In this document: one piece after another, positions 13,326 through 61,658 of the stretch
How positions within the stretch are numbered: the stretch's first letter is position 1
How the letters are laid out: each line of letters starts with the position of its first letter
Assembly: GCA_051986585.1 (NCBI GenBank)
Contig: JBPYFA010000293.1
Location: 1 to 63,547 of the forward strand
From: Vicinamibacterales bacterium
GTDB taxonomy: Bacteria > Acidobacteriota > Vicinamibacteria > Vicinamibacterales > 2-12-FULL-66-21
Length of the DNA stretch: 63,547 nucleotides
Direction: 5' to 3'
Position numbers and translations under genes: made by a program
Notes under the pieces: generated by a model
The model's input: only the letters and a program-made list of their open reading frames with translations
Told to the model about the DNA's origin: nothing
Database searches by the model: none

Positions 13326-14099
13326 CTAATAAGGACCGTCAACCGGAACGAAGAAATCGTCCTGCCGCCATTCATGGACGCGACGGTATCCGTGTGCTGC
13401 GAGCAGCGCCACAATCTGACTTCGCTTGGGCTCCTCGCGATTGTGCTCGATGGTCCACGCACCCACGCGGTACCGATCGAAAGGGAATCCCCGCAAGGCT
13501 TCCAGTTCTGCCCCCTCGATGTCCAGCGACACGTACTGGATGAACGGAGGGGCGCCGGCACGCGTCAGGATGTCATCGACGGTAACGGTCTTCACGGTCA
13601 CTGTCGGTGCACTCGCCGCCGTCTTGTTCCATGTGCCCAGCGTCTCGTCGACGCCGCCGAGTCCGCCGGCGGTATGAAACGTCATCAGCAGGCCGGGTTT
13701 GCTGAAGACAACCTCTTTGAACATCTTGCACGTGCGCCCTTCCATATGGATGGGAAAGGGATCGATACAGACTCCGTTCCATCCGCGCTCCTCGAGCGCC
13801 CGGCTATTCGATCCAATCGTGCCGTGACTGGAGCCGATATCGACGAAGTAGCCGTTGGTCACGCCTGGGAACACTCGTTCGAGGACCCATTTGTCCTGGC
13901 CGATTTCGGAAAAATACTCGGGACGGCCTCGAAGTTCGTTGACCGTGACCTGCAGGTTCCGCACGAACGACAGCTGACAGCAGCGACGGTTGTCGCGAAA
14001 GAGCTCGGCTGCGCCACTGTGGCGAACCACCACGAACGTACAAAACAGAGCGGCGACGGCTCCCACCGACAAGAAGAGACGCCGAGCAGGAATTTTCAC
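13326..14099 (-). CDS. FkbM-family methyltransferase with N-terminal signal anchor
   Basis: SAM-binding block YFVDIGSSHGTIGSNS and FkbM block VSLDIEGAELEALRGFPF are present. The GTG start overlaps the upstream stop (GTGA). Confidence 0.75.
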   Translation of the reverse strand: MKIPARRLFLSVGAVAALFCTFVVVRHSGAAELFRDNRRCCQLSFVRNLQVTVNELRGRPEYFSEIGQDKWVLERVFPGVTNGYFVDIGSSHGTIGSNSRALEERGWNGVCIDPFPIHMEGRTCKMFKEVVFSKPGLLMTFHTAGGLGGVDETLGTWNKTAASAPTVTVKTVTVDDILTRAGAPPFIQYVSLDIEGAELEALRGFPFDRYRVGAWTIEHNREEPKRSQIVALLAAHGYRRVHEWRQDDFFVPVDGPY

Positions 14100-15622
14100 T
14101 CGCCGCTATTGCTCACGAAGGCAATCATCCGGCCGTCAGGCGACCACGACGGCACGTTGATTGTTCCCTGTCCGCCGTAGACATACGCAATCACGGTCGG
14201 CGCGCCGCCATCAATCGGCATCAACCGCAAGTACACGCGCTTGTAGTACGGATGATCCGAGGCCTCGATCTCTTTCGGAAAGCTGATGAAGGCGATCGAC
14301 TGGCCGTCGGGTGAAATGTGCGGGAACCAGTTGTTCAAGTCATCCTTCGTGAGCTGTTCCGGGGTCTTCCCGTCCGCCGTCATCCGCCAGATCTGCATCG
14401 TTGCGCTGCCGCGGATCGAGTTGAAATAGATGTACTTGCCATCCGGGCTGTACTCGGGGCCGTCATCCAGACCCGGCGTGTTCGTCAGGTTGATCTCCGT
14501 GCCACTGCCGTCGGACGCAATCTTGTAGATATCGAATTCTTTGTTCCGCCCGCCGGTGTAGACGAGCCACTTGCGATCGGGTGACCAGCCGTGAAGATAT
14601 GACGGCGCCAATGGCGTAATCCGCTTCGGCGTTCCGCCGCTCGTCGGCACCGTGTAGATAGCCGATCCATCGCCTGCACTTTGGTCGCTGATGCCAAGCA
14701 TGCTGCCGTCGAACGAGAGCACGTGATCGTTGTTGATCCGATTCAGTGTGCCGGTCTCGATTGGCGTTGGCTGCCGCGTCGCGAGATCGAACCGGAACAG
14801 GCGGCCGCGTGTTTCGCCGCGTCCGCTGCTGTTGAAGATCAGCGCGCTACCGTCGGTCGTCCAGTTTGGCGCCTCGAAAGGCTGCTGCGATCGATAGATC
14901 GCCGAACGGTGACCGGTCGATACGTCGAGGATCTCGAGCACGCTGCCGATGTAGTCGCGGTACGGAACGAAATCCGGTTTTGCCGGCCGGATGACGCGAA
15001 CGTTGCTGAACACCGCTCGCTCGATCACGTCGGCATTGTGTGAACAGAGGACCAGCCCGACGAATACTTCGTCGCCGAGGCTGATGTCCGAGACCTCGGT
15101 GTTGACGAACGGCTCGCCGAACTTCGCCGCCGCGAAGGTGACGGTGGTACCGCGCCGCTCCAGTTGGAGAACGTCTGCCCCTTTTAGGGCAGCCTGCTTT
15201 TCTTCGGTTATTGCCCCTTTCGTGCGGCGGAACTGCAGCGAGGTCAACCCGTCGCCGTGGACGATCCCGTCGGCGTAGACGGCATCATCGTCCTGACTCG
15301 ATCGAATCATTAGACCGGCCTTGCGATGGGCTTCCACGCCCTTGCCGATCAGCTGCACGCGCGTCTGCAGGATGAAGTCGCCGGTGAGGCGCTTCCACAC
15401 GAAATGAAACTCGTCTCGCTGCGCCCACATGTTCGCGCCCGCCGCGGTAATCGTGTACTCCTGCGACAGGGGGTTGTATGCTGCCGAGCCGGCCACCTTC
15501 GGCGCGCCGACGTCCGCGTGACGGTCGAAATCGCCGAGCGGCGTCTGTGCGTCAACGAAGGCGGACGCCCCGGCGGCAACGACGGCGAGCAGGGTTGAGA
15601 GCAGGCTTGGTAAACGCATCAC
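14096..15622 (-). CDS. secreted TolB-like/PD40 beta-propeller protein with N-terminal concanavalin-like (DUF1349-like) domain
   Basis: The signal peptide is MMRLPSLLSTLLAVVAAGASAFVDAQ. Repeated PD40 motifs are WSPDRKWLVY, YSPDGKYIYFNS, ISPDGQSIAFISF and WSPDGRMIAFVSN. Confidence 0.8.
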   Translation of the reverse strand: MMRLPSLLSTLLAVVAAGASAFVDAQTPLGDFDRHADVGAPKVAGSAAYNPLSQEYTITAAGANMWAQRDEFHFVWKRLTGDFILQTRVQLIGKGVEAHRKAGLMIRSSQDDDAVYADGIVHGDGLTSLQFRRTKGAITEEKQAALKGADVLQLERRGTTVTFAAAKFGEPFVNTEVSDISLGDEVFVGLVLCSHNADVIERAVFSNVRVIRPAKPDFVPYRDYIGSVLEILDVSTGHRSAIYRSQQPFEAPNWTTDGSALIFNSSGRGETRGRLFRFDLATRQPTPIETGTLNRINNDHVLSFDGSMLGISDQSAGDGSAIYTVPTSGGTPKRITPLAPSYLHGWSPDRKWLVYTGGRNKEFDIYKIASDGSGTEINLTNTPGLDDGPEYSPDGKYIYFNSIRGSATMQIWRMTADGKTPEQLTKDDLNNWFPHISPDGQSIAFISFPKEIEASDHPYYKRVYLRLMPIDGGAPTVIAYVYGGQGTINVPSWSPDGRMIAFVSNSGE

Positions 15623-15727: not shown

Positions 15728-17047
15728 TTACGAAATGATTCTCACGTTAGTTGGTACGGTCGGCGCCGCCACAAATCGATTCGCAATTTTGTGCAAATCC
15801 GGCATGACGCCAATCCCGGTTACGGCAGTCCCATTGTTCGGGTCTGACAGCACCGCCCGTAGCTGCGATGCGTCGAGCCGTTGGCCTGTGCTGTGCTGGA
15901 ACATGCCCTGGGTGCTTAGCGCGGCTCCAGCAATGATCGCCGCCGCCGCCGACGTATCCAAGAAACATGGAGGAGCATAGGCCGACGTATCACCCGGACC
16001 GGTCGAGACCGACGTGAAGACGTCGTCGCCCCACGCAAAGCAGTCAATGCGGGTTCCGAAATTGGAGTTCGGTCGCGGCGTGCGAGTCCCGCTCGACGCA
16101 GACGCGACCATAATTGCCAGCGAGTCTCTGAAGGCCCTCGTGAAGAGGGCATTCCCGTTGCTGTCCACGAAGATGTCAAGCCTGCTGCCGCCGTTGCCTG
16201 CCGGTTCGACTACGACGACGCCAGCGGCCGTGGCCATACTAATGTTCGTGTAGCAGGTCGAGTCGATCTCAACGGGGAATCCATCTGCGCTGTTCGCCTC
16301 GATCAGGAGAACATCACCGGTCGCGAGCACGTGAAAGGCGACCAAAATTGCTTGCGCGAGCGCACTCCACGACGGCGGGGACACTGCGTCAGGCTTGTAG
16401 GATACGACGTTCACCGACCCGGGATTCGGTGCGACTCCGAAGAAGTGCTGCACGTTATCGTTGCCACAAACAACGCCAAGCGTCTGGGTACCGTGCATGG
16501 CATCTGCGGGATCGGCCACGCCGGACAACGGCGGCGGGATCGCATGCACCTTGAGTGCGTCGTGATCCAGCGTCCAACCGGTTTCGACATCGATGAAAGC
16601 GATGCCTGCCCCATTCGCGCCGCCCACCCCCCGGACAGTCGAGGCAGCGATACCGCCCCCCTGGCCCAAGTACCCTTCGCTGCACGGAGCCTTTGGCACG
16701 CTGTCGCGGTACGCCTCCTCGACCGTCGTCCACGCCTTCAAGACGTTCGCAAGCTGCTCCGCCTCAGTTGGCGATTCGACCGCGACCACGAAATACGTCA
16801 GGAGGTTCGGTGCCTTGTACGTCGGACTGTGGCTGACCGCACGATCGGCAAGCCTCTCGAGATCTGCAACCGAGAGCTCGCGATACAGACGGCGAATTCT
16901 CACGCCTGGAAACTGCGCTTCAATGTCACTCCAGGGACCGATTCCCCGCTCCTCGATCTCAGGCCCGACGTCGTCGATGTACGGCAGCTTCACGCTGTCG
17001 CGGAACTTCAGAACGACTTGCGGTAAAAACGTGATGGTCGGCGGCAT
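15728..17047 (-). CDS. S8 (subtilisin-like) serine peptidase without a signal peptide
   Basis: The catalytic order is Asp (AFIDVETGW), His (MHGTQTLGVV), oxyanion Asn (EPAGNGG) and Ser (LDTSAAAAIIAG). The N-terminal ~110 aa look like an I9-type propeptide. The N-terminus MPPTITFLPQVVLKFRD is not hydrophobic, and the ORF cannot be extended upstream. Confidence 0.85.
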   Translation of the reverse strand: MPPTITFLPQVVLKFRDSVKLPYIDDVGPEIEERGIGPWSDIEAQFPGVRIRRLYRELSVADLERLADRAVSHSPTYKAPNLLTYFVVAVESPTEAEQLANVLKAWTTVEEAYRDSVPKAPCSEGYLGQGGGIAASTVRGVGGANGAGIAFIDVETGWTLDHDALKVHAIPPPLSGVADPADAMHGTQTLGVVCGNDNVQHFFGVAPNPGSVNVVSYKPDAVSPPSWSALAQAILVAFHVLATGDVLLIEANSADGFPVEIDSTCYTNISMATAAGVVVVEPAGNGGSRLDIFVDSNGNALFTRAFRDSLAIMVASASSGTRTPRPNSNFGTRIDCFAWGDDVFTSVSTGPGDTSAYAPPCFLDTSAAAAIIAGAALSTQGMFQHSTGQRLDASQLRAVLSDPNNGTAVTGIGVMPDLHKIANRFVAAPTVPTNVRIIS

Positions 17048-17061
17048 CGTTCAGCTCCGGT

Positions 17062-17979
17062 TTAGATGGATCCAGGGGGGCAGTAGTCGGGGTCAACGCT
17101 CGACGCCACCGGCGGTGGAGGCTGCGGATCCGAGACGGCGTCCGGTACCCACTGCTTGTCAACCAGCTGATAGAACAGCGCCATGTGATCGACGCAGGGC
17201 CTCGAACCCTGGCACATACCCGGCGTGGACGGATTTGTCGGCAGGTTGTAAACGACGACGGTCGCTGGCAGCTTCACCACAGCCGTCTGGCTGCCGATGT
17301 TGAAGATCGCGTTCGCGTTCGCTGCGTTGATCTCGCAGTTCAACGTATCGGTCAGTGCCTGTTTCACGACCTTTTGCGGCGTACCGTTCACCTTGCGAGT
17401 GAAGTTCCAGACGACGCTCCGTCCGTATTGGCTCTCCGGCTTGAGGGCTTCGAGTCGGCCGTGCTCGAGGGTCAAGGTGCCGCAGAATTTTGAGTTGTCG
17501 GTAATCATCGTCGCGCCGCAAAGGGTCGGCAGACGAGCCGCATACTTTACAGACTTCCAGTGCGCATCGTCGCCGGGAAGGTCTTCGCCGATGTTGTCTT
17601 CGTTGAACGCGACGTCAGGTGAGCCGGACAGGCCCGCATCGAGCGTCACCGTCTTGTCTTTGAGATCGAATACCTTCCTGCCACTCTGATACGGGTCATT
17701 CACCGAGGGAGCTGTCGAGGAGGCATCGATGTCTTGATTGCTGACCGACAAGTAAGGGTGGTGCTCAATCACGTGAAACTGGTTCGGATCAAATTTGGTC
17801 GCGTCGACGAAGTGGAGAGTGAAGGCGTTGCCGCTTCGCTGTACGAGAGAAAGCCCCTTGATGTTGACGTTGAGTCGCCGCTGGCCAGTTGGGGATAGTT
17901 GGCGCGAACAGGCCGACCCCAGCGCTCCTGTCGCCAGCGCGGCGGCAAGCCGCACGAAATTCCGTCGATCGATTCCCAT
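17062..17979 (-). CDS. Tat-signal hypothetical exported protein (possible lipoprotein)
   Basis: MGIDRRNFVRLAAALATGALGSAC carries a twin-arginine motif followed by a Cys. I recognise no family. The C-terminus is Pro/Cys-rich. It sits 9 nt after the CHAT gene and 14 nt before the S8 gene. Confidence 0.7.
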   Translation of the reverse strand: MGIDRRNFVRLAAALATGALGSACSRQLSPTGQRRLNVNIKGLSLVQRSGNAFTLHFVDATKFDPNQFHVIEHHPYLSVSNQDIDASSTAPSVNDPYQSGRKVFDLKDKTVTLDAGLSGSPDVAFNEDNIGEDLPGDDAHWKSVKYAARLPTLCGATMITDNSKFCGTLTLEHGRLEALKPESQYGRSVVWNFTRKVNGTPQKVVKQALTDTLNCEINAANANAIFNIGSQTAVVKLPATVVVYNLPTNPSTPGMCQGSRPCVDHMALFYQLVDKQWVPDAVSDPQPPPPVASSVDPDYCPPGSI

Positions 17980-17988
17980 CGCATCCTC

Positions 17989-20900
17989 CTAATCTGAACC
18001 AATCAGCGTGAAACCCGCCCATGCGGCGGGACTTTGGAGCAGCGGGTCGGCATCAGCCATCAGCTCGAGCTGCGCTTTTCGGAGCGCCTCGGTCGGGTTT
18101 GCGGACTGGCGCAGCTGGCTATGAAACGCAACCAGCAAGCGACGGCTCGCGCGATCGTTGACGTCCCAAAGGCTGGCTACTACCGCGGGGACGCCAGCCG
18201 CGAGAAACGGCCGTGCGAGGCTGAAGACGCCTTCGCCGCGCCGGATCCGGCCGGCGCTCGTACGACAAGCGCCGAGCACGACGAGCCGCGTCGCCGCAAA
18301 CGGCTGTTGTGCGATATCGCGCGCGAACAAGCTGCCAGACGCCTCGCCGTCGCCCGCAAAAAGGAGCCGCGACAAGTCAGGATGCGCATCGTTCGCCACC
18401 GCGTGGCCGGCAAAGTGGATCACTTCGTACTGGCCGGCCGTGCTGAGGAACGCCTGCCGCGTCGCATCCGCACCGATCAGGAGCGTCGATCCTGAATAGA
18501 GCGTCGCGATCTGTTTCGCTTCTGTTTCCGCTTCGGGCAGGTTCGGAGCGACCTCCGCGTCGGCACCTTCGAGCCGCGGGTTGCCGATCACGAGTGCGGT
18601 TCTGGTCGGCGCGCTGTGCTGCGTCTTCGGCGATTGAGCCAGGAGTAGCGTGACGCTCGGCGTGATCTTGATCGCATGCTCCTCGATCAGGAACCGCCGA
18701 TCGTCGCGACGTATCAAGGCCGCGAACGGTACGGCGTGCAGCACACCATCCGGAACGATGACGAGCTCAGATCCCTCCGGAATCCGGTCGGCTACCGGAC
18801 GGATCAGCAAATCGTACAGCCTCGACAGGCTGGGCGTGTCGCGAGCCGCGATGCTGCTGAGCAGCATCTCCGACCGGTACTGCTGCACGAGATGCTCGAG
18901 CTCGGCCTGGCGGACCGACACTGCGATGTCGTGCGTATGAGCTCGATCCATGACCCAAATCAGGAGCCGGTCGTCGAGCGCGACATAGTAGAGAAGGGTG
19001 ACTGACGGTGGCAGCTGCGTGCGACCAGCATTCGGGTCCACCGTTGCTGTCTCTCCCGTGGGCGAAATCGCCTCGACGAGCGTTCGCGCGCGGGCACGCT
19101 CCGCGTACAACAACGCGCGATCCGGCCGGTGCCGGGTGATCGCCTGCAGCCGGATCATTTCCGTGTAGAGGTCCCAAGGTTGTTCAAATGAGGCGCTGCG
19201 TAGCGCTTCGTCGGCGATGGCTGCGCGCCGCTGTTCGAAGAGCTCGATGCCAGCTGTCAAATCGGCTTCGGCCAGATCGTCGCGGCCTTCCGCGAGGTGT
19301 GCGCGCGCCCGGGCGAGTCGAACCCGCGCGACCGGCCAGTTGCGTCGAGCTTTTTCGAAGCCGGCAAGTGCGGTGGACAGTATCTCGACCGCCTCGCCGG
19401 GACGACGGTTTGCCTGCGCCTCGCCCTGGGCCAGCTGAATTCTCGGCTCGTCTCGTGCGATCAGCTGGGGATCCGGAACCGTCGACAACGCCTCCTGCGC
19501 CGCCGCCAGTTCCGTGAGCGCCTTGTCCGAATCGCCGCTCTCCTGGAGAATCTCGCCCTGGTACAGTCGTGCGTTGACGACAGCGAGCGGCCGTCCCCAC
19601 CGCTCCGCGTTCTTCAAGGTGGCGGCCTGGAAATACGCGGCCGTCTCGGTCAGGCCCTGGCGAAGCGCGGCCAATGCCGCGTTCTGAAGGACGAGGTGGT
19701 GGTGGCGGCGGTCGGCCACAGTACTGAGTTGCGACAACCCTTTCACGAGCTCGGCCCAGACGAGCGCCGGCTCGCCAAGAAAGTCCAGCACCTCGGCCGA
19801 CAGCGCATGCAGCGACGCCTCGTTCGGGATATCTCTTACGCGCTCGAAGCAGGCAGTCGCTGTTCTGTACTCTTGCAGGCCGCCGGCAAAATCTCCACGG
19901 ACGCCTTTGATCAAGCCGTGCATGCGATGTGCGAGGCCCAATACCCTTGTGTAATGCCGGTCAGTGGCAGTTTGAATGACACTCACGAGGAGCTTCTCAG
20001 CACCGTCGAGATCGGCAGCGTAGTAGCGACCAATCGCGAGGTTCAGCCGCGTCGATACGGCGAACGGACTATCCAGTCGCGTCAATGGCTCGAGCGCTGC
20101 CTCAAACTGCGGCATCGAGTCGCGGATCCGATCCTCGCTGTAAGCCATCGAAGCGGCGCTAAAGGTCGTATGCGCGCGCGCGAGTTCGGAAGCGAGACGG
20201 GCATTGTGCGATGCGAGAGCGATGGTCCGGAGGACGTTCGCGGTAAACGGGTCTCCCGTCGTCGACATGATGCCGGCGGCTGCCGCGTGCGATACGTCAA
20301 GCACTGTCCGAGCGTCCGCGCCTCGGTTCTCTGCGATCGCGCGCGGCCACGCGACGAGCACTTCATCCTGAAGCCATTCACGCGCCACATCTGGAGACTG
20401 CTCGGCGTTTCGCCGCAACTCTGCCGTGTCGCCACGACGCGCGGCGTCTTCAAAACGTGATTTGTCATCACTGGTCGAAGATTGATGCCGCGTCTCGAGT
20501 TCGCGCAAATGTGTGCGAGCTTCGCTCGCCCAGTCCGACCTGTCGTCTACCTTGAGATAGTCCTGCCAGGCGCGTCGGGCTTCATCGGTCAGAGAAAGCC
20601 GCTCGAGCGCGTAGGCGCGGTTGAACCAGGCCTCGGCGAGCCGCCTGTCGGCCTTCGTCGCGCGATCCGCGGTCGCCAGTGCCTTGGCGAGATCCTGCGG
20701 CTGGTCGTACCGCGTGGCTCGAACGAGGTAGGCGGCCGAAAGGTCGTTGAGGATTCGTGCGTCCGGAGTGGGCTGATCCGCCGCTTCTTCCAGAACCGGC
20801 ACCGCACGGTTGACATCGCCGAGAACGAGATAGGCAATGCCGAGCGCCTTCAGCGCCTGCGGCGTCCGACGGACAATCGCGTGCTTCTCGATCTGTGCAG

Positions 20901-21375
20901 CAGCGATGCGAACGTCGGGCGACACGGACGGCGCTGTCGCTTCGCCCGCCCGAACAGGACCGCGCAGCGGCCCGTAGGCAAAGCCTCCACTCAGCCGCGG
21001 CTCGACCGTCCGCTCCGTTCCGACGGCCGCCACTAGCGCCTGCAGTCCTGGCTCCTCCGGCGTCAGCCGCCAGAACCGGCCTATCCCGACCGCAACCACC
21101 AGACATGCCGCGGCCCCGAGGACGCCTGCCGACGCCCAGACGGCTCGGCGTACCGCGGCTCGCTGGAACAGCGGCACCGGTGTCGGATGGACCGTCGCTC
21201 CTACGCTGGCCGTGTGAGCCGTGTGCGTTTGGACCGCTTCACAAAACAGCGCATAGCAGGTCTCGCACGACGCGAGATGCGCCGTTATCTCCTCGCGCGC
21301 GCGCGCCGTCAGCCGATCGTCGAGATAGGCGCCGATCGTCTCGAGATCGGGGCACGGCGACACGTTTCCGGTCAT
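17989..21375 (-). CDS. membrane anti-sigma factor (zf-HC2) fused to TPR repeats and a C-terminal CHAT (caspase-like) protease domain
   Basis: The N-terminus has an HxxxCxxC motif (ITAHLASCETC) and a TM segment (AVWASAGVLGAAACLVVAVGIG). A long helical-repeat region follows. The C-terminal CHAT domain has His (VIHFAGHAV) and Cys (LVVLGACRTSAG). ATG 21375 overlaps the sigma stop as ATGA; GTG 21387 is an alternative start. Confidence 0.85.
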   Translation of the reverse strand: MTGNVSPCPDLETIGAYLDDRLTARAREEITAHLASCETCYALFCEAVQTHTAHTASVGATVHPTPVPLFQRAAVRRAVWASAGVLGAAACLVVAVGIGRFWRLTPEEPGLQALVAAVGTERTVEPRLSGGFAYGPLRGPVRAGEATAPSVSPDVRIAAAQIEKHAIVRRTPQALKALGIAYLVLGDVNRAVPVLEEAADQPTPDARILNDLSAAYLVRATRYDQPQDLAKALATADRATKADRRLAEAWFNRAYALERLSLTDEARRAWQDYLKVDDRSDWASEARTHLRELETRHQSSTSDDKSRFEDAARRGDTAELRRNAEQSPDVAREWLQDEVLVAWPRAIAENRGADARTVLDVSHAAAAGIMSTTGDPFTANVLRTIALASHNARLASELARAHTTFSAASMAYSEDRIRDSMPQFEAALEPLTRLDSPFAVSTRLNLAIGRYYAADLDGAEKLLVSVIQTATDRHYTRVLGLAHRMHGLIKGVRGDFAGGLQEYRTATACFERVRDIPNEASLHALSAEVLDFLGEPALVWAELVKGLSQLSTVADRRHHHLVLQNAALAALRQGLTETAAYFQAATLKNAERWGRPLAVVNARLYQGEILQESGDSDKALTELAAAQEALSTVPDPQLIARDEPRIQLAQGEAQANRRPGEAVEILSTALAGFEKARRNWPVARVRLARARAHLAEGRDDLAEADLTAGIELFEQRRAAIADEALRSASFEQPWDLYTEMIRLQAITRHRPDRALLYAERARARTLVEAISPTGETATVDPNAGRTQLPPSVTLLYYVALDDRLLIWVMDRAHTHDIAVSVRQAELEHLVQQYRSEMLLSSIAARDTPSLSRLYDLLIRPVADRIPEGSELVIVPDGVLHAVPFAALIRRDDRRFLIEEHAIKITPSVTLLLAQSPKTQHSAPTRTALVIGNPRLEGADAEVAPNLPEAETEAKQIATLYSGSTLLIGADATRQAFLSTAGQYEVIHFAGHAVANDAHPDLSRLLFAGDGEASGSLFARDIAQQPFAATRLVVLGACRTSAGRIRRGEGVFSLARPFLAAGVPAVVASLWDVNDRASRRLLVAFHSQLRQSANPTEALRKAQLELMADADPLLQSPAAWAGFTLIGSD

Positions 21376-22346
21376 CGCTTCAGCCACGATGTCCTCATGA
21401 ATCGCACGCGTCGGTCCGGTGCTGGAAGTTCGACGTTGTCACGCGACGAGCCGAACGACCCGTCAGCAAACAGCGCGCTGACGTCCGTCCGCGAAATGCC
21501 CTCTGCCTCGAGGCTCGCGCCAATCCGCGAGAGCAGCCGCTCGATCCTTCGATACAGTCGCTTCTGGTCCAGCTGCAGCGCGCGTGCAATATCGGCCACT
21601 GGCACCGCGTCCTCGAAGCGCATTTTGAGAATCAGCCGCTCCTCCGGGTCGAGCGCCTGTCGGGCGCGATCGAGCGCGGACTGAACGCGCTTGGCGAGAA
21701 AACCCTGCTCGGCGCGGACGACGTTGATATCGGAACCGGGACCGGGTTCCAAGATCTCCTCCGCGACATCTTCGGTGACGAACTGCCGCGACGGACCCCG
21801 CCTCGCCAGCTTGACGAATAACGCCTCCAGCGTCTCGTCGAGCGTCACACCATGATTGGTTCGCAGGATCTCCGTCGCCTGTTCGACGCTCCATCCGTCC
21901 CGCAACACGAGCCGCTCTACGAGAATCGCGATCGGTCCGAGACGATTCGCCTCCGCGGACGGCCGCCATTTGCCCCATTGACGATTCCGGTAATCGAGAA
22001 ACAAGCGCTGGATGACGACATTGATGTATGTCGGGAGGCTGCAGCGGCGTTCGAACCTCCGCAACACCTCGTAGTCGCGCTCGATGAAATGGAGGCGCAC
22101 TTCGGAGCGGAAATCGTCCGCTTCCGGACCGCTCAACCGATGGCGCCGGCACACCTGTGCGGCCACGTCCTCGATGAGGGGAAGACTGGCGAGGAAGAGA
22201 GCTTCGCCCTGCACAAACGACTCTGGCGACGCGACCAATTCGCGTCCGCGGCCCTGGTCCGATGAGCGAGCGGGCTGCGTGATGCGAGGCCATGCCGGAG
22301 CCGTGGGCTCAGGAGGCAGCAGCCGCTTTGACCGCGGATTATTCAT
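21372..22346 (-). CDS. sigma-70 family (ECF-like) RNA polymerase sigma factor with enlarged linker and terminal extensions
   Basis: Sigma-2 reads DDFRSEVRLHFIERDYEVLRRFERRCSLPTYINVVIQRLFLDYRNRQ. Sigma-4 reads LDPEERLILKMRFEDAVPVADIARALQLDQKRLYRRIERLL. The protein is 324 aa, with about 85 aa between the two regions. Confidence 0.85.
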   Translation of the reverse strand: MNNPRSKRLLPPEPTAPAWPRITQPARSSDQGRGRELVASPESFVQGEALFLASLPLIEDVAAQVCRRHRLSGPEADDFRSEVRLHFIERDYEVLRRFERRCSLPTYINVVIQRLFLDYRNRQWGKWRPSAEANRLGPIAILVERLVLRDGWSVEQATEILRTNHGVTLDETLEALFVKLARRGPSRQFVTEDVAEEILEPGPGSDINVVRAEQGFLAKRVQSALDRARQALDPEERLILKMRFEDAVPVADIARALQLDQKRLYRRIERLLSRIGASLEAEGISRTDVSALFADGSFGSSRDNVELPAPDRRVRFMRTSWLKR

Positions 22347-22380: not shown

Positions 22381-22406
22381 ATAGACGGACAACCAACCTC
22401 GATTCC
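22381..22406 (-). promoter_or_regulatory. candidate ECF-type promoter of the sigma/CHAT operon
   Basis: The minus strand reads GGAATCGAGGTTGGTTGTCCGTCTAT (GGAAT-N14-CGTCT), 36 nt upstream of ATG 22346. Its -35/-10 words match those of the 22573 site. Confidence 0.45.
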
Positions 22407-22572
22407 CGGCGCAAGACCGATGTCACTGCAGATAGTTTGGTCGCGTCGGCGGGCTCGGCCCCGAGGGTGAACAGGCCGGATAGGTACCTTCGGCCATCAG
22501 CGCTTTCTCGACGGACGCAGCCGGCGATTTCGCGCCGACTCACCAGCATTTCTTCCGATTCCTCTGGGCTCA

Positions 22573-22598
22573 GGAATTAGCGCCCTCCGTCCGTCTCT
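22573..22598 (+). promoter_or_regulatory. candidate ECF-type promoter of the divergent HExxH-protein/lipoprotein operon
   Basis: GGAATTAGCGCCCTCCGTCCGTCTCT (GGAAT-N14-CGTCT) lies 52 nt upstream of ATG 22649. It shares GTCCGTCT with the 22381 site. Confidence 0.45.
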
Positions 22599-22648
22599 TT
22601 CCGCGAAAGGCAGCCGGTTCGATCGCCGGCGAAAGCGGCAGGTGACGT

Positions 22649-23230
22649 ATGGGGTCTCGATTCACGAAGGCGTGCCTGGCGGCGATCCTGGGGTTGTCCG
22701 CGTCGGGAGCGACGAGCGCGGCTGACGATCAGCCCGGGTTGGCGTTCAAGAATCTCCGCACCTCTGATGCGGAGATCCTCTCAGCAATCTCGGGCTGCTA
22801 TCGCGACTCGCCGACATGCCATCAGCTGATCGATGAAATCGAATCGTCCTCGACCATCGTCTATCTCGCGCCGGGCCAGTGCATGCCCGGACAAGGCGGC
22901 TCCTGCCTGCGGTTTGTTACGGCTTCGACGCACGCAAGGTACCTCCAGATCATCCTCGACCGGGATCTGAGCGGCGCCTACCTGCTGAAAATCACCGCTC
23001 ACGAACTGCAACACGCTGTCGAGGTCGTCCGAGCGCCGCAGGTGGTCGATCGCTCCTCGTTCGAGCTGCACTACCGCCGGATTGGGTTCTTCATCCACGG
23101 ATCGGGAATGCGGGAGGACTGGGAAACCGAGGAGGCGCAGCGCATCGCCTCCATCGTCAGCAAGGAACTCAAGCGATCTCAGCGAGCCGCGTTGCTGGCG
23201 TTCAAGGACACGCGCGTCGGTAAGGAGTGA
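22649..23230 (+). CDS. small secreted protein with HExxH motif (putative zinc-metallopeptidase-like)
   Basis: The signal peptide is MGSRFTKACLAAILGLSASGATSAADD. An HExxH motif sits in ITAHELQHAVEV, and there are four conserved-looking Cys residues. I recognise no family. Confidence 0.65.
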   Translation: MGSRFTKACLAAILGLSASGATSAADDQPGLAFKNLRTSDAEILSAISGCYRDSPTCHQLIDEIESSSTIVYLAPGQCMPGQGGSCLRFVTASTHARYLQIILDRDLSGAYLLKITAHELQHAVEVVRAPQVVDRSSFELHYRRIGFFIHGSGMREDWETEEAQRIASIVSKELKRSQRAALLAFKDTRVGKE

Positions 23231-23233
23231 AGT

Positions 23234-23605
23234 ATGAAGAAAGTGCTTTCGTTCGTAGCGGTGAGCCTGTTGATGGCTGCGTGCGGCGGCTCACCTGTCC
23301 AGCCGAGCACCCGCGGAGGAAACTCGACGCCACCGCCGCCGGCCACCTATAGCGTCGCCGGAATGGTGTTCGAGGCAACCGCTGACGGTTCCCGCGGGAT
23401 CGCTGAAGCAACCGTCGCGGTCGCGAACGACCTTCAGACCCTGACCGCGTCAACAGACGCGAACGGTGTCTTCTCGCTCGAAGGGGTCAAGGTGGGCACC
23501 TGGCAGCTTTCCGTGACCAAGGACGGGTACGAGACTCGGACCATGATGCTCGATGTCCAAGCGACCCAGTCGGTCGACGTGGAACTGAAGGCGGTCAGTA
23601 ACTAG
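23234..23605 (+). CDS. lipoprotein with carboxypeptidase-regulatory-like (CarboxypepD_reg) beta-sandwich domain
   Basis: The lipobox is MKKVLSFVAVSLLMAAC. The domain pattern is YSVAGMVFE...ATVAVAND..TDANGVFSLEGVKVGTWQLSVTKDGYETR. It starts 3 nt after the previous gene. Confidence 0.75.
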   Translation: MKKVLSFVAVSLLMAACGGSPVQPSTRGGNSTPPPPATYSVAGMVFEATADGSRGIAEATVAVANDLQTLTASTDANGVFSLEGVKVGTWQLSVTKDGYETRTMMLDVQATQSVDVELKAVSN

Positions 23606-23766
23606 TGTCCTGTCCGCGTGGTTCGCGACATAATTCCCGGGCGGGACATCCCGGCTGGCGGCGTTGCTCCACCCTTAAATACTCCCCGTATTCGCGGTCG
23701 TCGCGCCTTGCCATCCGGGCGCCGCGCACCGGGACTATGCCGCGATCCACGCGGACAGGACACTAG
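23602..23766. repeat. 20-bp perfect inverted repeat flanking a 125-bp spacer (165-bp element)
   Basis: CTAGTGTCCTGTCCGCGTGG (23602-23621) and CCACGCGGACAGGACACTAG (23747-23766) are exact reverse complements. The left arm begins inside the stop codon of the lipoprotein gene. Confidence 0.9.
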
Positions 23767-23857
23767 CTCACGACGATCTGTCGAGGCGTCGATGACCGGG
23801 GGTCGTCCGACTTCGACGCCTCAGATCGCCTCGTCTCCGATCGCACCGTGCCGGTGC

Positions 23858-23882
23858 GAAATTCGCCAGCCAATCCGTCTAT
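23858..23882 (+). promoter_or_regulatory. third copy of the ECF-type motif, upstream of the second sigma gene
   Basis: GAAATTCGCCAGCCAATCCGTCTAT (GAAAT-N13-CGTCTAT) is followed by GGAGG (23889-23893) and GTG 23900. Confidence 0.35.
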
Positions 23883-23899
23883 ATCGCTGGAGGCGACAG

Positions 23900-24529
23900 G
23901 TGAACACGCAACTCACATCACCGGCGAACGTTCTGCCGGGGATTCCCGTAGGATTTTTGGAGCGATCCACAATTCTCGAAGTGACGCCCGATCTCGCTGC
24001 GAGGATCAACGGCGGTGACGAGGCGGCACTGGAAATCCTGCTCAGATCGTATTTGCCGGCACTGCGGCGAATCGTTCAGAAGCAACTGCGCGGTCACACC
24101 CGATCGATGCTCGATGCCGAGGACGTCGTTCAGGATGCGCTCGTCAGTACCCTCAGGCGGATGCCTCACTTCGTGTGGCGCACTCCCGGCGCGATGTTGG
24201 CGTATCTGCGGCGTGTGGTCCTCAATCGCATCATCGACGCAAACCGCAAGTGTGCACGCCAGGGCGAATGGGTGCCCTTGACCGACGACTGCGCAGGCGA
24301 GACGCCGTCACCGCTGGAGCGCGTGGTCGACAGCGAGCGGATCCGGCGATACCGGACAGCGCTGCTTCGGCTGAAGCCACGCGATCGCCAGCTGATCGTA
24401 CTCAGAGTGGAGCGGCAGCTGCGGTATCAAGAGATCGGCACACAACTGCGGATGCCGTCGGCCAATGCGGCACGAGTTGCGTTGATACGCGCGATGGCGC
24501 GCTTGGTTACGACCTTAGACCAGGTGTAG
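23900..24529 (+). CDS. ECF-type sigma-70 family sigma factor (no adjacent anti-sigma gene)
   Basis: Sigma-2 reads LLRSYLPALRRIVQKQLRGH..DAEDVVQDALVSTL...LAYLRRVVLNRIID. Sigma-4 reads LKPRDRQLIVLRVERQLRYQEIGTQLRMPSANAARVALIRAMARL. GTG 23900 was chosen because a GGAGG lies 6 nt upstream. ATG 23792 and the 23618 track start are alternatives. Confidence 0.8.
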   Translation: MNTQLTSPANVLPGIPVGFLERSTILEVTPDLAARINGGDEAALEILLRSYLPALRRIVQKQLRGHTRSMLDAEDVVQDALVSTLRRMPHFVWRTPGAMLAYLRRVVLNRIIDANRKCARQGEWVPLTDDCAGETPSPLERVVDSERIRRYRTALLRLKPRDRQLIVLRVERQLRYQEIGTQLRMPSANAARVALIRAMARLVTTLDQV

Positions 24530-61436: not shown

Positions 61437-61658
61437 CTTCCGCCTAAAGGCGGAAGCCACAGGTTGTGATTGTCTGGTGGTTCCCACTGTCTTGTGGCTT
61501 CCGCCATTAGAGGGTGGTGCCCTCTCTTTGTGGCTTCCGCCATTGAGAGGGTGGTGCCCTCTCTTTGTGGCTTCCGCCTTCGAGGCGGAAGATCAGGGTT
61601 CCCACTGTCTTGTGGCTTCCGCCTTTAGGCGGAAGATCAGTATGCGGAAGATCAGGGT
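61437..61658. repeat. cluster of REP-like hairpin elements (BIME-like array)
   Basis: An inverted copy, CTTCCGCCTAAAGGCGGAAGCCACAG, lies at 61437-61462. Four direct copies of TTGTGGCTTCCGCC start at 61492, 61528, 61565 and 61610. Two near-identical ~36-bp units carry the hairpin AGAGGGTGGTGCCCTCT. Complete hairpins are CTTCCGCC-TTCGA-GGCGGAAG and CTTCCGCC-TTTA-GGCGGAAG. GGAAGATCAGGGTT is repeated. Confidence 0.9.

Follow-up and report, generated by a model that had tools for sequence, protein, structure and literature searches.

The four-gene operon described here probably encodes an envelope signalling module of the DdvS/DdvA type, a distant relative of the Myxococcus switch, a reading to which we give a probability of roughly 0.6. 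The operon lies at positions 15,728–22,346 of the window, i.e., the whole analysed stretch of 63,547 nt (contig JBPYFA010000293.1) from a Vicinamibacterales bacterium of the Acidobacteriota. DdvS/DdvA of Myxococcus xanthus pairs an ECF sigma factor with a transmembrane ZAS-TPR-CHAT anti-sigma factor (PMC11506125, PMC6061681). The initial annotation knew of no characterised example of the four-part arrangement; this claim falls, as the central sigma/TPR-CHAT anti-sigma fusion has already been characterised in M. xanthus, and a link between ECF sigma factors, subtilases and CHAT proteins was noted earlier for ECF54 (PMC8999054). New here are the spread in Acidobacteriota and Gemmatimonadota, the protein family of the third gene (X), the varied peptidases in the fourth slot and the conserved promoter.

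Operon organization and conservation

The ORF list and direct sequence reads give four co-directional genes:
21372..22346, minus strand: gene 1, sigma factor
17989..21375, minus strand: gene 2, anti-sigma factor
17062..17979, minus strand: gene 3 (X), Tat-signal protein
15728..17047, minus strand: gene 4, S8 subtilase

The tight junctions claimed earlier were confirmed at −4, 9 and 14 nt. At the first, ATGA (21372-21375) is the stop of the sigma gene overlapping the ATG of the anti-sigma gene, for which a GTG at 21387 is an alternative start. The gene 2 stop and the gene 3 ATG are 9 nt apart, and a perfect AGGAGG precedes that ATG by 5 nt. The S8 ATG comes 14 nt after the gene 3 stop and is itself preceded by GGAG. 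The four-gene order is kept in every related contig long enough for it, and a synteny check found the gene order again in 14 of 14 related metagenome loci with a gene 3 homolog (gene 3 identity 31–46%). Synteny is seen in L001-L004, L006-L013 and L015. This recurrence makes the arrangement more than chance, and comparison of the sequences supports the four genes as a conserved unit. The architecture of a sigma factor with a ZAS-TM-TPR-CHAT protein occurs commonly in MAGs of the Acidobacteriota and Gemmatimonadota. The surroundings of the operon showed no defence genes, no CRISPR array and no other obvious regulon. About 1 kb from the operon, the window has a second ECF sigma gene and a gene for a CarboxypepD_reg protein.

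The sigma factor and its putative promoter

Gene 1 encodes a divergent ECF-type sigma factor of 324 aa. It matches TIGR02937 (sigma70-ECF, 55.2 bits versus a cut-off of 42.9), and its matches to the Pfam region-4 models lie just under gathering. Relatives of gene 1 match Sigma70_r2 and r4_2 in the domain search, and a profile search extends to region 4 in the structures of FliA, SigF and ECF sigma factors. The linker between sigma2 and sigma4 is long (~75 residues), a C-terminal tail is present, the N-terminal MNNPRS is conserved in relatives, and identity to the homologs in L003, L011 and L015 is 54–58%. By these sequence features the factor is atypical, being long and having Pfam region matches below gathering.

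A conserved motif precedes the sigma gene:
22382..22405, minus strand: candidate ECF-type promoter

This promoter-like element consists of a −35 GAAT (22405-22402), a 14-nt spacer and a −10 CGTCTA (22387-22382). The pattern GAA[AT]-N13-14-(C)CGTCT[AC] occurs upstream of the sigma start in 8/8 relatives, with flanking intergenic DNA that is not conserved, and the strict pattern has 7 matches in the window versus 1.2 expected. We infer that 22382-22405 acts as an ECF-type promoter.

The anti-sigma TPR-CHAT protein

The following parts were delimited in gene 2:
21256..21354, minus strand: cytoplasmic zinc anti-sigma domain, CHCC ligands C8, H33, C37 and C40
21076..21144, minus strand: single TM helix, ~aa 78-100 (hydropathy)
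20950..21054, minus strand: juxtamembrane linker, aa 108-142 (conserved motif)
19015..20919, minus strand: helical scaffold and TPR superhelix, aa 153-787 (AlphaFold secondary structure, TPR matches)
17995..18834, minus strand: CHAT caspase-like protease domain, aa 848-1127 (PF12770)
18403-18405, minus strand: catalytic His991 (conserved HFAGH)
18265-18267, minus strand: catalytic Cys1037 (conserved LGACRTS)

The product is a transmembrane anti-sigma factor of 1128 aa, counted from the ATG. Its initial reading as an HxxxCxxC zinc finger joined to one TM helix, TPR repeats and a CHAT domain was borne out by Pfam matches to zf-HC2 (E 2.6e-6, residues 14-40), TPR models (residues 172-280) and CHAT (PF12770; E 5.7e-71, residues 848-1127, full profile covered) and by hydropathy (Kyte-Doolittle maximum 2.17 at residue 78). 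Weak matches to Csx29 in NCBIfam and, beside the catalytic Cys, to Peptidase_C50 in Pfam were also recorded. The ligands C8/H33/C37/C40, counterparts of DdvA C6/H28/C32/C35, are invariant across 12 relatives with identity down to 29%, and a TM segment lies at 60-125 in 50 of the 52 relatives carrying the HxxxCxxC motif. AHLASCETC, HFAGH (H991) and LGACRTS (C1037) are all present and invariant in relatives, H991 and C1037 across the same 12, in line with the intact His/Cys dyad reported at first. The periplasmic orientation proposed for the TPR-CHAT portion likewise holds with the single TM helix; sequence and model together support a predicted periplasmic region of ~1000 residues with an intact His-Cys dyad. 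In the AlphaFold model (pLDDT 81.5, pTM 0.79), residues 153-787 are all-helical, and pLDDT is low in the juxtamembrane linker.

The linker carries the motif L-x-A-L-V-A-A-V-G-x-E-R-x-V-E-P-R-L-S-G-G-F-A-Y-G-P-L-R, invariant or nearly so in the alignment. In every family member examined, with or without a ZAS domain, this motif immediately follows the TM helix, signal peptide or lipobox. Analogy with the DdvA linker makes the segment a candidate for site-1 cleavage or docking.

The best PDB fold matches of the gene 2 model are to DdvA (8rot_A, E 1.1e-18; 8rw5, E 1.9e-18), with TM scores of 0.59–0.61 (target-normalised) over 1015–1046 aligned columns. Csx29 is the next-best match (0.37–0.42) and separase is also among the matches, both well behind DdvA. 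Between the sequences of gene 2 and DdvA HMMER found no homology, and identity in the fold alignment is 17–18%, so the shared architecture could be very old, or partly assembled independently.

The third gene product, X

X has 305 aa and the N-terminus MGIDRRNFVRLAAALATGALGSAC, with one feature delimited there:
17908-17979, minus strand: Tat signal and conserved Cys24

By its sequence, X is a Tat-signal protein and possibly a lipoprotein. The initial annotation had described a twin-arginine signal and no recognisable family; both points were upheld, with R5/R6 invariant or nearly so among 43 family members and no Pfam, NCBIfam, PADLOC or PDB match apart from Tat signals. Residues R6, G42, H73, P135, C300 and P301 are invariant in this small unannotated family, for which 98 representatives were counted in a set of 1.84 billion proteins.

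X is the next gene after CHAT in 14/14 metagenome loci and after a TPR-CHAT gene in 44/70 genome loci, both where a ZAS domain or sigma gene is present and where it is missing. The association with this TPR-CHAT clade is thus observed directly, and suggests that X is its dedicated partner. X stays with the CHAT gene regardless of sigma factor, anti-sigma domain or fourth gene, which favours a tie to the CHAT protease over one to the sigma regulon; X might then be a substrate, a pseudosubstrate regulator or a co-sensor. In most relatives, even beside ZAS-TM-CHAT genes, the X homologs begin at the first beta-strand and have no signal, yet the CHAT proteins encoded beside them are exported (lipoproteins or signal-anchored proteins), and this makes direct X-CHAT contact hard to generalise.

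The S8 subtilase and the fourth-gene slot

Gene 4 encodes an S8 subtilase of 439 aa without a signal peptide, whose Peptidase_S8 match (PF00082) is above gathering at 25.6 bits versus a cut-off of 21.8. Its catalytic domain adjoins one further domain:
16673-17047, minus strand: conserved N-terminal domain, ~125 aa

Of the complete D/H/N/S set described earlier, H185, N285 and S366 align with subtilisin DY. The acid position is ambiguous between E155, which aligns with Asp32, and D153, two residues before it; in the S8 subfamily both are conserved (E155 in 51/51, D153 in 49/51). The reported lack of a signal peptide was sustained, as none was found in the S8 subfamily in any context examined, and the N-terminal motif starts no more than about 10 residues from the Met in 44 of 51 homologs. 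PF05922 (I9 propeptide) has no match in gene 4, and the description ‘propeptide-like’ therefore refers to position and conservation only.

S8 immediately follows X in the window's clade. Linkage of S8 and CHAT was seen again in the distant loci L098 and L099, where remote S8 homologs lie beside CHAT genes. Ten post-X genes were sampled from relatives without the window-type S8, and six of them encode peptidases (C39-like, M12B, M36 and other S8); some fourth-slot genes are non-peptidase, encoding a Dyp peroxidase or a HEAT protein. The slot after X is thus often occupied by a peptidase, from unrelated families in relatives. These six genes and the C25-type peptidase of M. xanthus lend support to the earlier view that the system includes a second protease.

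Proposed mechanism and alternatives

Following DdvA, for which CHAT autoproteolysis together with RseP has been proposed (PMC11506125), the zinc domain of gene 2 would hold the sigma factor in the cytoplasm until an envelope signal led to removal of the bulky periplasmic domain, either through autoproteolysis, with CHAT cutting the juxtamembrane linker in trans, or through a partner protease. An RseP-type site-2 protease would then cut within the membrane and free the sigma factor, which, judging from the conserved promoter, would read its own GAAT-N14-CGTCTA element and raise expression of the whole four-gene operon. In the window's clade, the Tat signal would send X to the periplasm, the same place as TPR-CHAT; S8 may be carried there by folded X, or else its site of action may be the cytoplasm.

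A possible but clearly less probable alternative is that X and S8 are only induced effectors (envelope remodelling, antagonism, nutrient proteolysis or cell-death defence), with the sigma/anti-sigma pair sensing an envelope cue. Both genes lie downstream within a putatively autoregulated operon, near which no other obvious regulon was found; the fourth slot can be taken by any of several peptidase families, and sometimes by a Dyp peroxidase or HEAT protein, as would suit cargo, and the M. xanthus regulon consists of effector systems (PMC11506125). However, X follows CHAT without any sigma or ZAS gene in 26/70 genome loci, which is unexpected for pure sigma-regulon cargo, and the S8-CHAT linkage recurs without X in other phyla.

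We consider it unlikely that X folds with the signal-less S8 and hitchhikes it via Tat, and that S8 and/or CHAT then cut the anti-sigma linker or X as the site-1 event freeing sigma; as the sigma factor's own operon includes X and S8, such a loop would be self-amplifying. Subunits of hydrogenase and DMSO reductase are known to travel through Tat as hitchhikers, and in eukaryotes the site-1 protease belongs to the subtilases. The Tat signal is on X, with none on S8, their genes are 14 nt apart, each with its own ribosome-binding site, and Tat-X is paired with S8 in every member of the window's clade. The linker motif is strongly conserved, and the fourth-slot peptidases of relatives (C39-like, M36, M12B, other S8) are usually export-signalled, so that the slot suggests extracytoplasmic action. 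Against this, the same S8 subfamily follows a signal-less X in L031, L040 and L051, where CHAT is exported; signal-less S8 lies beside Sec-exported CHAT or FecR proteins in L098, L099 and L005, where X is absent; and L029 and L060 have Tat-X without the window-type S8.

Decidedly improbable is an ECF54-like role, in which cytoplasmic degradation of sigma, or of the anti-sigma fragment once released, by the signal-less S8 would set the level of free sigma. ECF54 genes adjoin subtilase, CHAT and carboxypeptidase genes and proteolytic control was proposed there, but even in ECF54 this is only a bioinformatic proposal (PMC8999054). S8 has no export signal in any context, and the conserved N- and C-terminal extensions of the sigma factor could serve as degrons; yet the anti-sigma domain is complete here, unlike in ECF54, and S8 is found in 0/23 genome loci with a same-strand upstream sigma gene and is absent from most sigma plus ZAS-CHAT loci.

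Bacterial gasdermins are cytoplasmic. A cell-death/defence cassette in which X is a gasdermin-like or other pore-forming substrate activated by CHAT or S8 is hardly credible, although CHAT and S8 proteases are described in PMC8851545 as controlling fungal gasdermin-like proteins and X is of fitting size, looks beta-rich and has a conserved C-terminal YCPP tail: none of the 43 family members matches Pfam or PADLOC gasdermin/defence models, the window's X is Tat-exported in contrast to the cytoplasmic bacterial gasdermins, and the structural model of X is unusable (pLDDT 33).

Comparison with known systems

ECF54 resembles the locus in having carboxypeptidase, subtilase and CHAT types near an ECF sigma gene, and differs in being actinobacterial, in having no anti-sigma factor and in a context that is purely bioinformatic (PMC8999054, PMC7826278). 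The RseA/DegS/RseP and RsiW/PrsW/RasP systems share a single-pass anti-sigma factor whose bulky extracytoplasmic part is removed before site-2 cleavage, and RsiW has a CHCC zinc domain like that of gene 2; their site-1 protease is separate, whereas the window's anti-sigma factor has a built-in protease and a second, co-encoded one. Separase–securin likewise joins helical repeats to a caspase-like protease held by a dedicated pseudosubstrate partner, but is eukaryotic, cytoplasmic or nuclear, and works without a sigma factor; a securin-like role of X would be an analogy only. In the type III-E craspase, the TPR-CHAT protease Csx29 is tied to sigma control and has a co-encoded dedicated partner, the substrate Csx30, to which X showed no similarity in the libraries searched. 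Csx29 is cytoplasmic, monomeric and RNA-activated via Cas7-11, whereas the window's protease is predicted to be periplasmic and is fused to the anti-sigma factor.

The closest likeness is to DdvS/DdvA, with DdvA structures from cryo-EM and NMR (PDB 8ROT, 8RW5, 8RLZ) and reports of DdvA-type proteins only in Myxococcota and one Comamonas (PMC11506125). The DdvA mutants H862A and C907A had no phenotype, and CHAT activity and the trigger are unproven for DdvA (PMC11506125). The window differs in phylum, in its much longer sigma factor (324 aa), in the Tat signal of its third gene, in S8 rather than C25 as the fourth gene and in having no CBASS or CRISPR genes near the operon. In both systems, the sigma and anti-sigma genes are coupled in translation, and the anti-sigma factor has a CHCC zinc domain, one TM helix, a flexible juxtamembrane linker and a periplasmic scaffold-TPR-CHAT part of ~900-1000 residues with a His-Cys dyad. 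The putative promoter resembles that of DdvS, GTAA-n16-CGT (PMC11506125), in its GxAA...CGT form, as an ECF-type, autoregulated element. The M. xanthus operon, which comprises DdvS, DdvA, an unknown protein and a C25-type peptidase (PMC11506125), continues as the window's operon does, with an unknown protein and a peptidase.

A conserved four-gene operon

The layout described in the initial annotation, four tightly spaced co-directional genes, was confirmed by the ORF list and by direct reading of the sequence:

21372-22346, minus strand: sigma factor gene (gene 1), 324 aa
17989-21375, minus strand: anti-sigma factor gene (gene 2), 1128 aa from the ATG, with an alternative GTG at 21387
17062-17979, minus strand: gene 3, encoding the protein referred to here as X, 305 aa
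15728-17047, minus strand: S8 peptidase gene (gene 4), 439 aa

The sigma stop codon overlaps the anti-sigma ATG in an ATGA, 9 nt separate the anti-sigma stop from the start of gene 3, which is preceded by a perfect AGGAGG, and a further 14 nt lead from gene 3 to the S8 start, preceded by GGAG.

The order of the four genes is conserved in related contigs. A TPR-CHAT gene lies directly upstream of the gene 3 homolog in every metagenome contig that has one; S8 follows directly downstream wherever the contig reaches, except in the atypical locus L014, and a sigma gene is found upstream wherever the contig extends that far. The anti-sigma gene is preceded by a sigma homolog in L003, L004, L011, L015 and L016, and a same-strand upstream sigma gene is present in 19 of the 23 genome loci with a zinc anti-sigma (ZAS) motif. 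In L015, a 1-Mb metagenome contig, the same four genes are situated between unrelated housekeeping genes. Because the gene order is conserved in relatives, chance adjacency is excluded, and on comparative grounds the four genes can be regarded as a conserved unit.

Several loci depart from this layout. L014 (85-5806) encodes two shorter TPR-CHAT genes back to back, each followed by an X homolog; their alignment begins near residue 480 of gene 2, and no anti-sigma domain was seen in either copy. Given its fragmented ORFs, this locus may be degraded or poorly assembled. The sigma or anti-sigma frames are split in L004 (2161-6401), L011, L029, L060, L079 and L087, for example into ZAS (138 aa) and TPR-CHAT (993 aa) pieces, most likely through assembly frameshift errors. 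L052 and L069 look like genuine split versions, consisting of a short ZAS-TM protein and a separate exported TPR-CHAT protein.

The operon’s neighbours in the window are housekeeping genes. On the same strand, 105 nt downstream of S8, a 508-aa secreted PD40 beta-propeller/DUF1349 protein is encoded (14096-15622, minus strand), with no terminator detected in between; its position is not kept in relatives, several of which (L004, L015) have PD40/Tricorn-like genes nearby. No defence island was found beside the operon: the window has no CRISPR array, and none of the four proteins matched a PADLOC system. An Rfam search of the window gave no match, also for a 37-bp unit repeated in three head-to-tail copies (61476-61585, 89% match), which is not a CRISPR array.

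The anti-sigma TPR-CHAT protein

The domains assigned to gene 2 in the initial annotation were all recovered by HMM searches: zf-HC2 scored 27.8 bits against a cut-off of 22.2 (E 2.6e-6), CHAT matched over its whole profile (E 5.7e-71), and TPR models matched as well. Twelve relatives, some with as little as 29% identity, all keep the predicted zinc ligands C8, H33, C37 and C40, and the catalytic dyad, described as intact, proved invariant in gene 2 relatives (H991 and C1037). The proposed single TM helix corresponds to the only hydrophobic segment, residues 78-100, which is helical in the AlphaFold model. This model, a monomer built on 12 relatives, reached a pLDDT of 81.5 and a pTM of 0.79, and only a few loops and the TM-proximal linker were modelled with low confidence; residues 153-787 form helical repeats.

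Just outside the membrane, an otherwise disordered segment contains a strongly conserved linear motif, VEPRLSGGFAYxP (20950-21054, minus strand), seen in all CHAT-family loci. CHAT proteins without a ZAS domain, whose N-termini are of the lipoprotein or signal-anchor kind, share it in the form R-x-[VF]-E-[PG]-R-L-[ST]-G-G-F-x-[YW]-x-P.

A word-indexed search yielded approximately 90 full-length relatives of gene 2, the named ones from Vicinamibacterales and Vicinamibacteria. HxxxCxxC is present in 52 of these, and 50 of the 52 have a TM segment. Scanning GTDB with one genome for each species returned 269 relatives; the loci retained, 79 in number and all from MAGs, belong to Vicinamibacteria, Thermoanaerobaculia, Holophagales, other Acidobacteriota and Gemmatimonadota/Longimicrobiales. 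Viral-contig scans for genes 2 and 3 found none.

The sigma factor and its promoter

Gene 1 matched the ECF model TIGR02937 (55.2 bits, cut-off 42.9), with the Pfam r4 and r4_2 models just under gathering (21.4 and 21.2 bits) and no r2 match; among 12 relatives, r2 matched in five and r4_2 in eight. The protein is atypical for an ECF sigma factor, having a long linker and terminal extensions. Searched against the PDB, the single sequence gave no match and the profile retrieved generic sigma region 4 only. Its N-terminus is the hexapeptide MNNPRS (22329-22346, minus strand), conserved in six loci (the window, L003, L011, L015, L060 and L092) and followed by 30-50 variable residues; it may serve as a degron or regulatory tag.

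A motif of the form GAA[AT]-N13-14-(C)CGTCT[AC] precedes the sigma start in 8/8 relatives, in flanking DNA that is otherwise unconserved:

22405-22382, minus strand: ECF-type -35/-10 promoter-like element, the conserved motif upstream of the sigma start

Conservation of this predicted element supports positive autoregulation of the operon. No internal copies of the pattern were found within the four genes. In L003 (1-285) a Ser/Thr protein kinase gene terminates right before the sigma gene, and the DNA preceding the sigma start in L011, L060, L092 and L019 may likewise belong to the end of a coding region.

The strict pattern occurs seven times in the window, compared with 1.2 expected, and four of these matches fall within 22382-23881, two of them upstream of a divergent gene set:

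22649-23230, plus strand: 193-aa secreted protein with an HELQH (HExxH) motif, for which no Pfam family was found
23234-23605, plus strand: CarboxypepD_reg lipoprotein
23618-24529, plus strand: canonical ECF sigma factor, lacking an adjacent anti-sigma gene

The further matches in this cluster, all within 1.5 kb of the operon, lie on the plus strand at 22574-22597, 22841-22863 and 23858-23881; one is located 52 nt upstream of ORF 22649-23230 and another immediately before what is probably the true start of the second ECF sigma gene. Such clustering may reflect a divergent co-regulated unit or a cascade of sigma factors. Homologs of the second sigma factor adjoin the CHAT loci L027, L053 and L018/L097.

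Protein X accompanies the CHAT protease

No family had been recognised in gene 3, and Pfam and NCBIfam likewise offered none: searches of Pfam, NCBIfam, PADLOC and the PDB with single sequences and profiles recognised the Tat signal alone. That twin-arginine signal, noted initially, was upheld (DRRNFVR, fitting the S/T-R-R-x-F-L-K-like consensus, followed by LAAALATGALGSA) and predicts export; R5/R6 are conserved across 43 family members, and hits of the window protein to the models TAT_signal (E 0.25) and TIGR01409 (E 0.074) were weak. Gasdermin or defence similarity was found in none of the 43 members with Pfam and PADLOC models. An AlphaFold model from six sequences reached a pLDDT of 33 and was unusable for fold comparison. 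For this family, a word-indexed search across 5.8 billion protein clusters gave only six clusters at 90% identity, and a profile run exhaustively against 1.84 billion proteins gave 98 representatives; a first genome scan with gene 3 patterns gave no match.

Custom profiles were then applied to the fetched loci, taking as denominator the 70 genome loci whose downstream sequence spans 1 kb or more. An X-family gene directly follows the CHAT gene in 44 of these 70. Nineteen X loci have a sigma gene and/or a ZAS motif and 26 have neither, 45 in total, one of which has less than 1 kb downstream. Since X follows CHAT genes with or without these elements, it tracks the CHAT protease and not the sigma factor, and we infer that it would act as a dedicated partner of the protease.

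Among X homologs, the Tat signal is restricted to the window’s clade and a few others. The majority start directly at the first beta-strand (e.g., MSIALSIAFTGL); in these the stop codon of the preceding CHAT gene overlaps the start, which leaves no room for a signal peptide. Sec or lipoprotein signals take the place of the Tat signal in two homologs.

A variable peptidase slot after X

Gene 4 matched Peptidase_S8 (PF00082) with 25.6 bits against a cut-off of 21.8. The initial annotation had credited it with a complete D/H/N/S set: H185, N285 and S366 align to the His, Asn and Ser of subtilisin DY and are conserved in homologs, and the acid is ambiguous, with E155 aligning to Asp32, D153 lying two residues before it, and both conserved in 51 homologs. 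The N-terminal domain of approximately 125 aa, initially described as propeptide-like, is conserved; PF05922 (I9) gave no match to it at E<=0.01. The reported lack of a signal peptide applies to the entire subfamily, which is never signal-bearing; it is a family trait and not a mis-called start, because the family’s N-terminal motif starts within about 10 residues of the initial Met in 44/51 homologs.

The gene that follows X differs among loci.

Gene following X in the loci compared
Signal-less S8 subfamily: window’s clade, L031, L040, L051
Secreted C39-like cysteine peptidase: L021
M12B-like metallopeptidase: L060
M36 peptidase: L075
Other S8 peptidases: L027 (with an N-terminal signal-like segment), L044
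Non-peptidase: sometimes

The third genes of L025, L026 and L030 have N-termini resembling that of the L021 peptidase. Remote S8 homologs (34-36% identity) were found between Sec-exported CHAT genes in the apparent Bacteroidota loci L098 and L099, and another comes after a FecR-TPR protein. From the varied genes after X and the remote S8-CHAT loci it follows that the second protease is frequent, not universal. Its identity can be exchanged among loci, and the subtilase is the window clade’s version of the peptidase often found after X.

In L098 (1509-11236) and L099 (685-11297), signal-less S8 genes alternate with two Sec-exported CHAT genes and with genes for small basic proteins (103-125 aa); upstream, L098 carries a sigma gene and a TPR protein as well.

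A putative envelope sensor and the location of its parts

Most likely, the locus encodes an envelope sensor of the type of DdvS/DdvA, the ECF sigma factor and transmembrane TPR-CHAT anti-sigma factor of Myxococcus xanthus. What sequences and a predicted structure show are the architecture, the synteny, the fold match and the conservation of the promoter. The zinc anti-sigma domain would hold the sigma factor; the periplasmic TPR-CHAT portion would have to be removed before RseP-type cleavage could free it, and the freed sigma factor would then positively autoregulate the operon via the conserved promoter. The proteolytic release steps are borrowed by analogy from DdvA, where they are themselves unproven.

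The roles and location of X and S8 can only be surmised, and the pairing of exported CHAT proteins with subtilases that have no signal peptide poses a targeting puzzle. Three readings can be put forward: X and S8 may sometimes be cytoplasmic while the CHAT domain is outside; both may be exported by an unrecognised route; or, in the window’s clade, folded X may carry S8 through the Tat pathway. A strict version of the last is not favoured, because a Tat-signal X occurs without this S8 in L029 and L060, and this S8 occurs with a signal-less X in L031, L040 and L051, so that strict co-occurrence of the two is rejected.

A joint reading, which we regard as unlikely, would make X the missing periplasmic partner of the DdvA class, a dedicated substrate or securin-like regulator turning an envelope cue into activation of CHAT; the peptidase often found after X would be the second arm of a two-protease switch, and in the window’s clade Tat-borne X would also ferry the signal-less subtilase to the periplasm. 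If true, it would supply the trigger logic for the whole DdvA class.

Comparison with DdvS/DdvA and other known systems

The initial annotation knew of no characterised example of the four-part arrangement, which is contradicted by the DdvS/DdvA operon of M. xanthus (PMC11506125). That operon continues with an uncharacterised protein and a C25-type peptidase and shares the four-part logic of the window operon. In DdvA, a CHCC zinc domain in the cytoplasm is joined by one TM helix and a flexible linker to a periplasmic scaffold-TPR-CHAT region of approximately 900 residues, and cryo-EM has provided its structure together with the ECF sigma factor (PMC11506125). In the model proposed by its authors, a signal induces CHAT to cut the linker autoproteolytically in trans, after which RseP cleaves and the sigma factor is released; they state that they do not know the trigger, and mutating the dyad gave no phenotype (PMC11506125). 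A dimeric arrow-shaped assembly and a CHAT domain without the three-helix motif are further traits of the DdvA type.

In a Foldseek search with the gene 2 model, DdvA occupied ranks 1 and 2 (8rot_A, E 1.1e-18; 8rw5, E 1.9e-18), with target-normalised TM scores of 0.59-0.61 over 1015-1046 aligned columns at 17-18% identity; Csx29 (TM 0.37-0.42) and separases ranked below. The link came only from this fold search: phmmer and a four-sequence profile run with gene 2 against all PDB chains retrieved TPR proteins only and did not reach 8ROT/8RW5 at E<=1, and the N-terminal 102 aa did not find DdvA among PDB chains. Because HMMER does not connect them, gene 2 was filed as a protein of the same architecture as DdvA, a very distant relative and not an orthologue.

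The zinc ligands C6/H28/C32/C35 of DdvA have counterparts in C8/H33/C37/C40 of gene 2, the window’s sigma gene is likewise directly upstream and translationally coupled through the ATGA overlap, and its promoter element, a typical ECF-type -35/-10 pair, is similar to the DdvS promoter GTAA-n16-CGT. In contrast, no defence island adjoins the window operon, whereas DdvA itself controls a neighbouring one; according to its authors, only a subset of homologs do. ECF54 sigma factors adjoin carboxypeptidase, subtilase and CHAT proteins (reviewed in PMC8999054), and the carboxypeptidase-like, subtilase and CHAT trio of the window echoes this in genomic context only. DdvA-like proteins have been reported from Myxococcota and one Comamonas; the architecture is much more widely spread than this range.

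To our knowledge, no characterised anti-sigma factor other than DdvA has a caspase-like protease built in; neither what triggers DdvA nor what its protease does has been established, and its reported distribution is narrow. The core fusion is already known from DdvS/DdvA. To this the present locus and its relatives add that the architecture is common among soil Acidobacteriota and Gemmatimonadota that are uncultured, that it has a conserved, unannotated partner protein, X, and that a second peptidase, of several families, often comes next. X and this peptidase are testable candidates for the missing signal-input or output parts of the DdvA-class switch.
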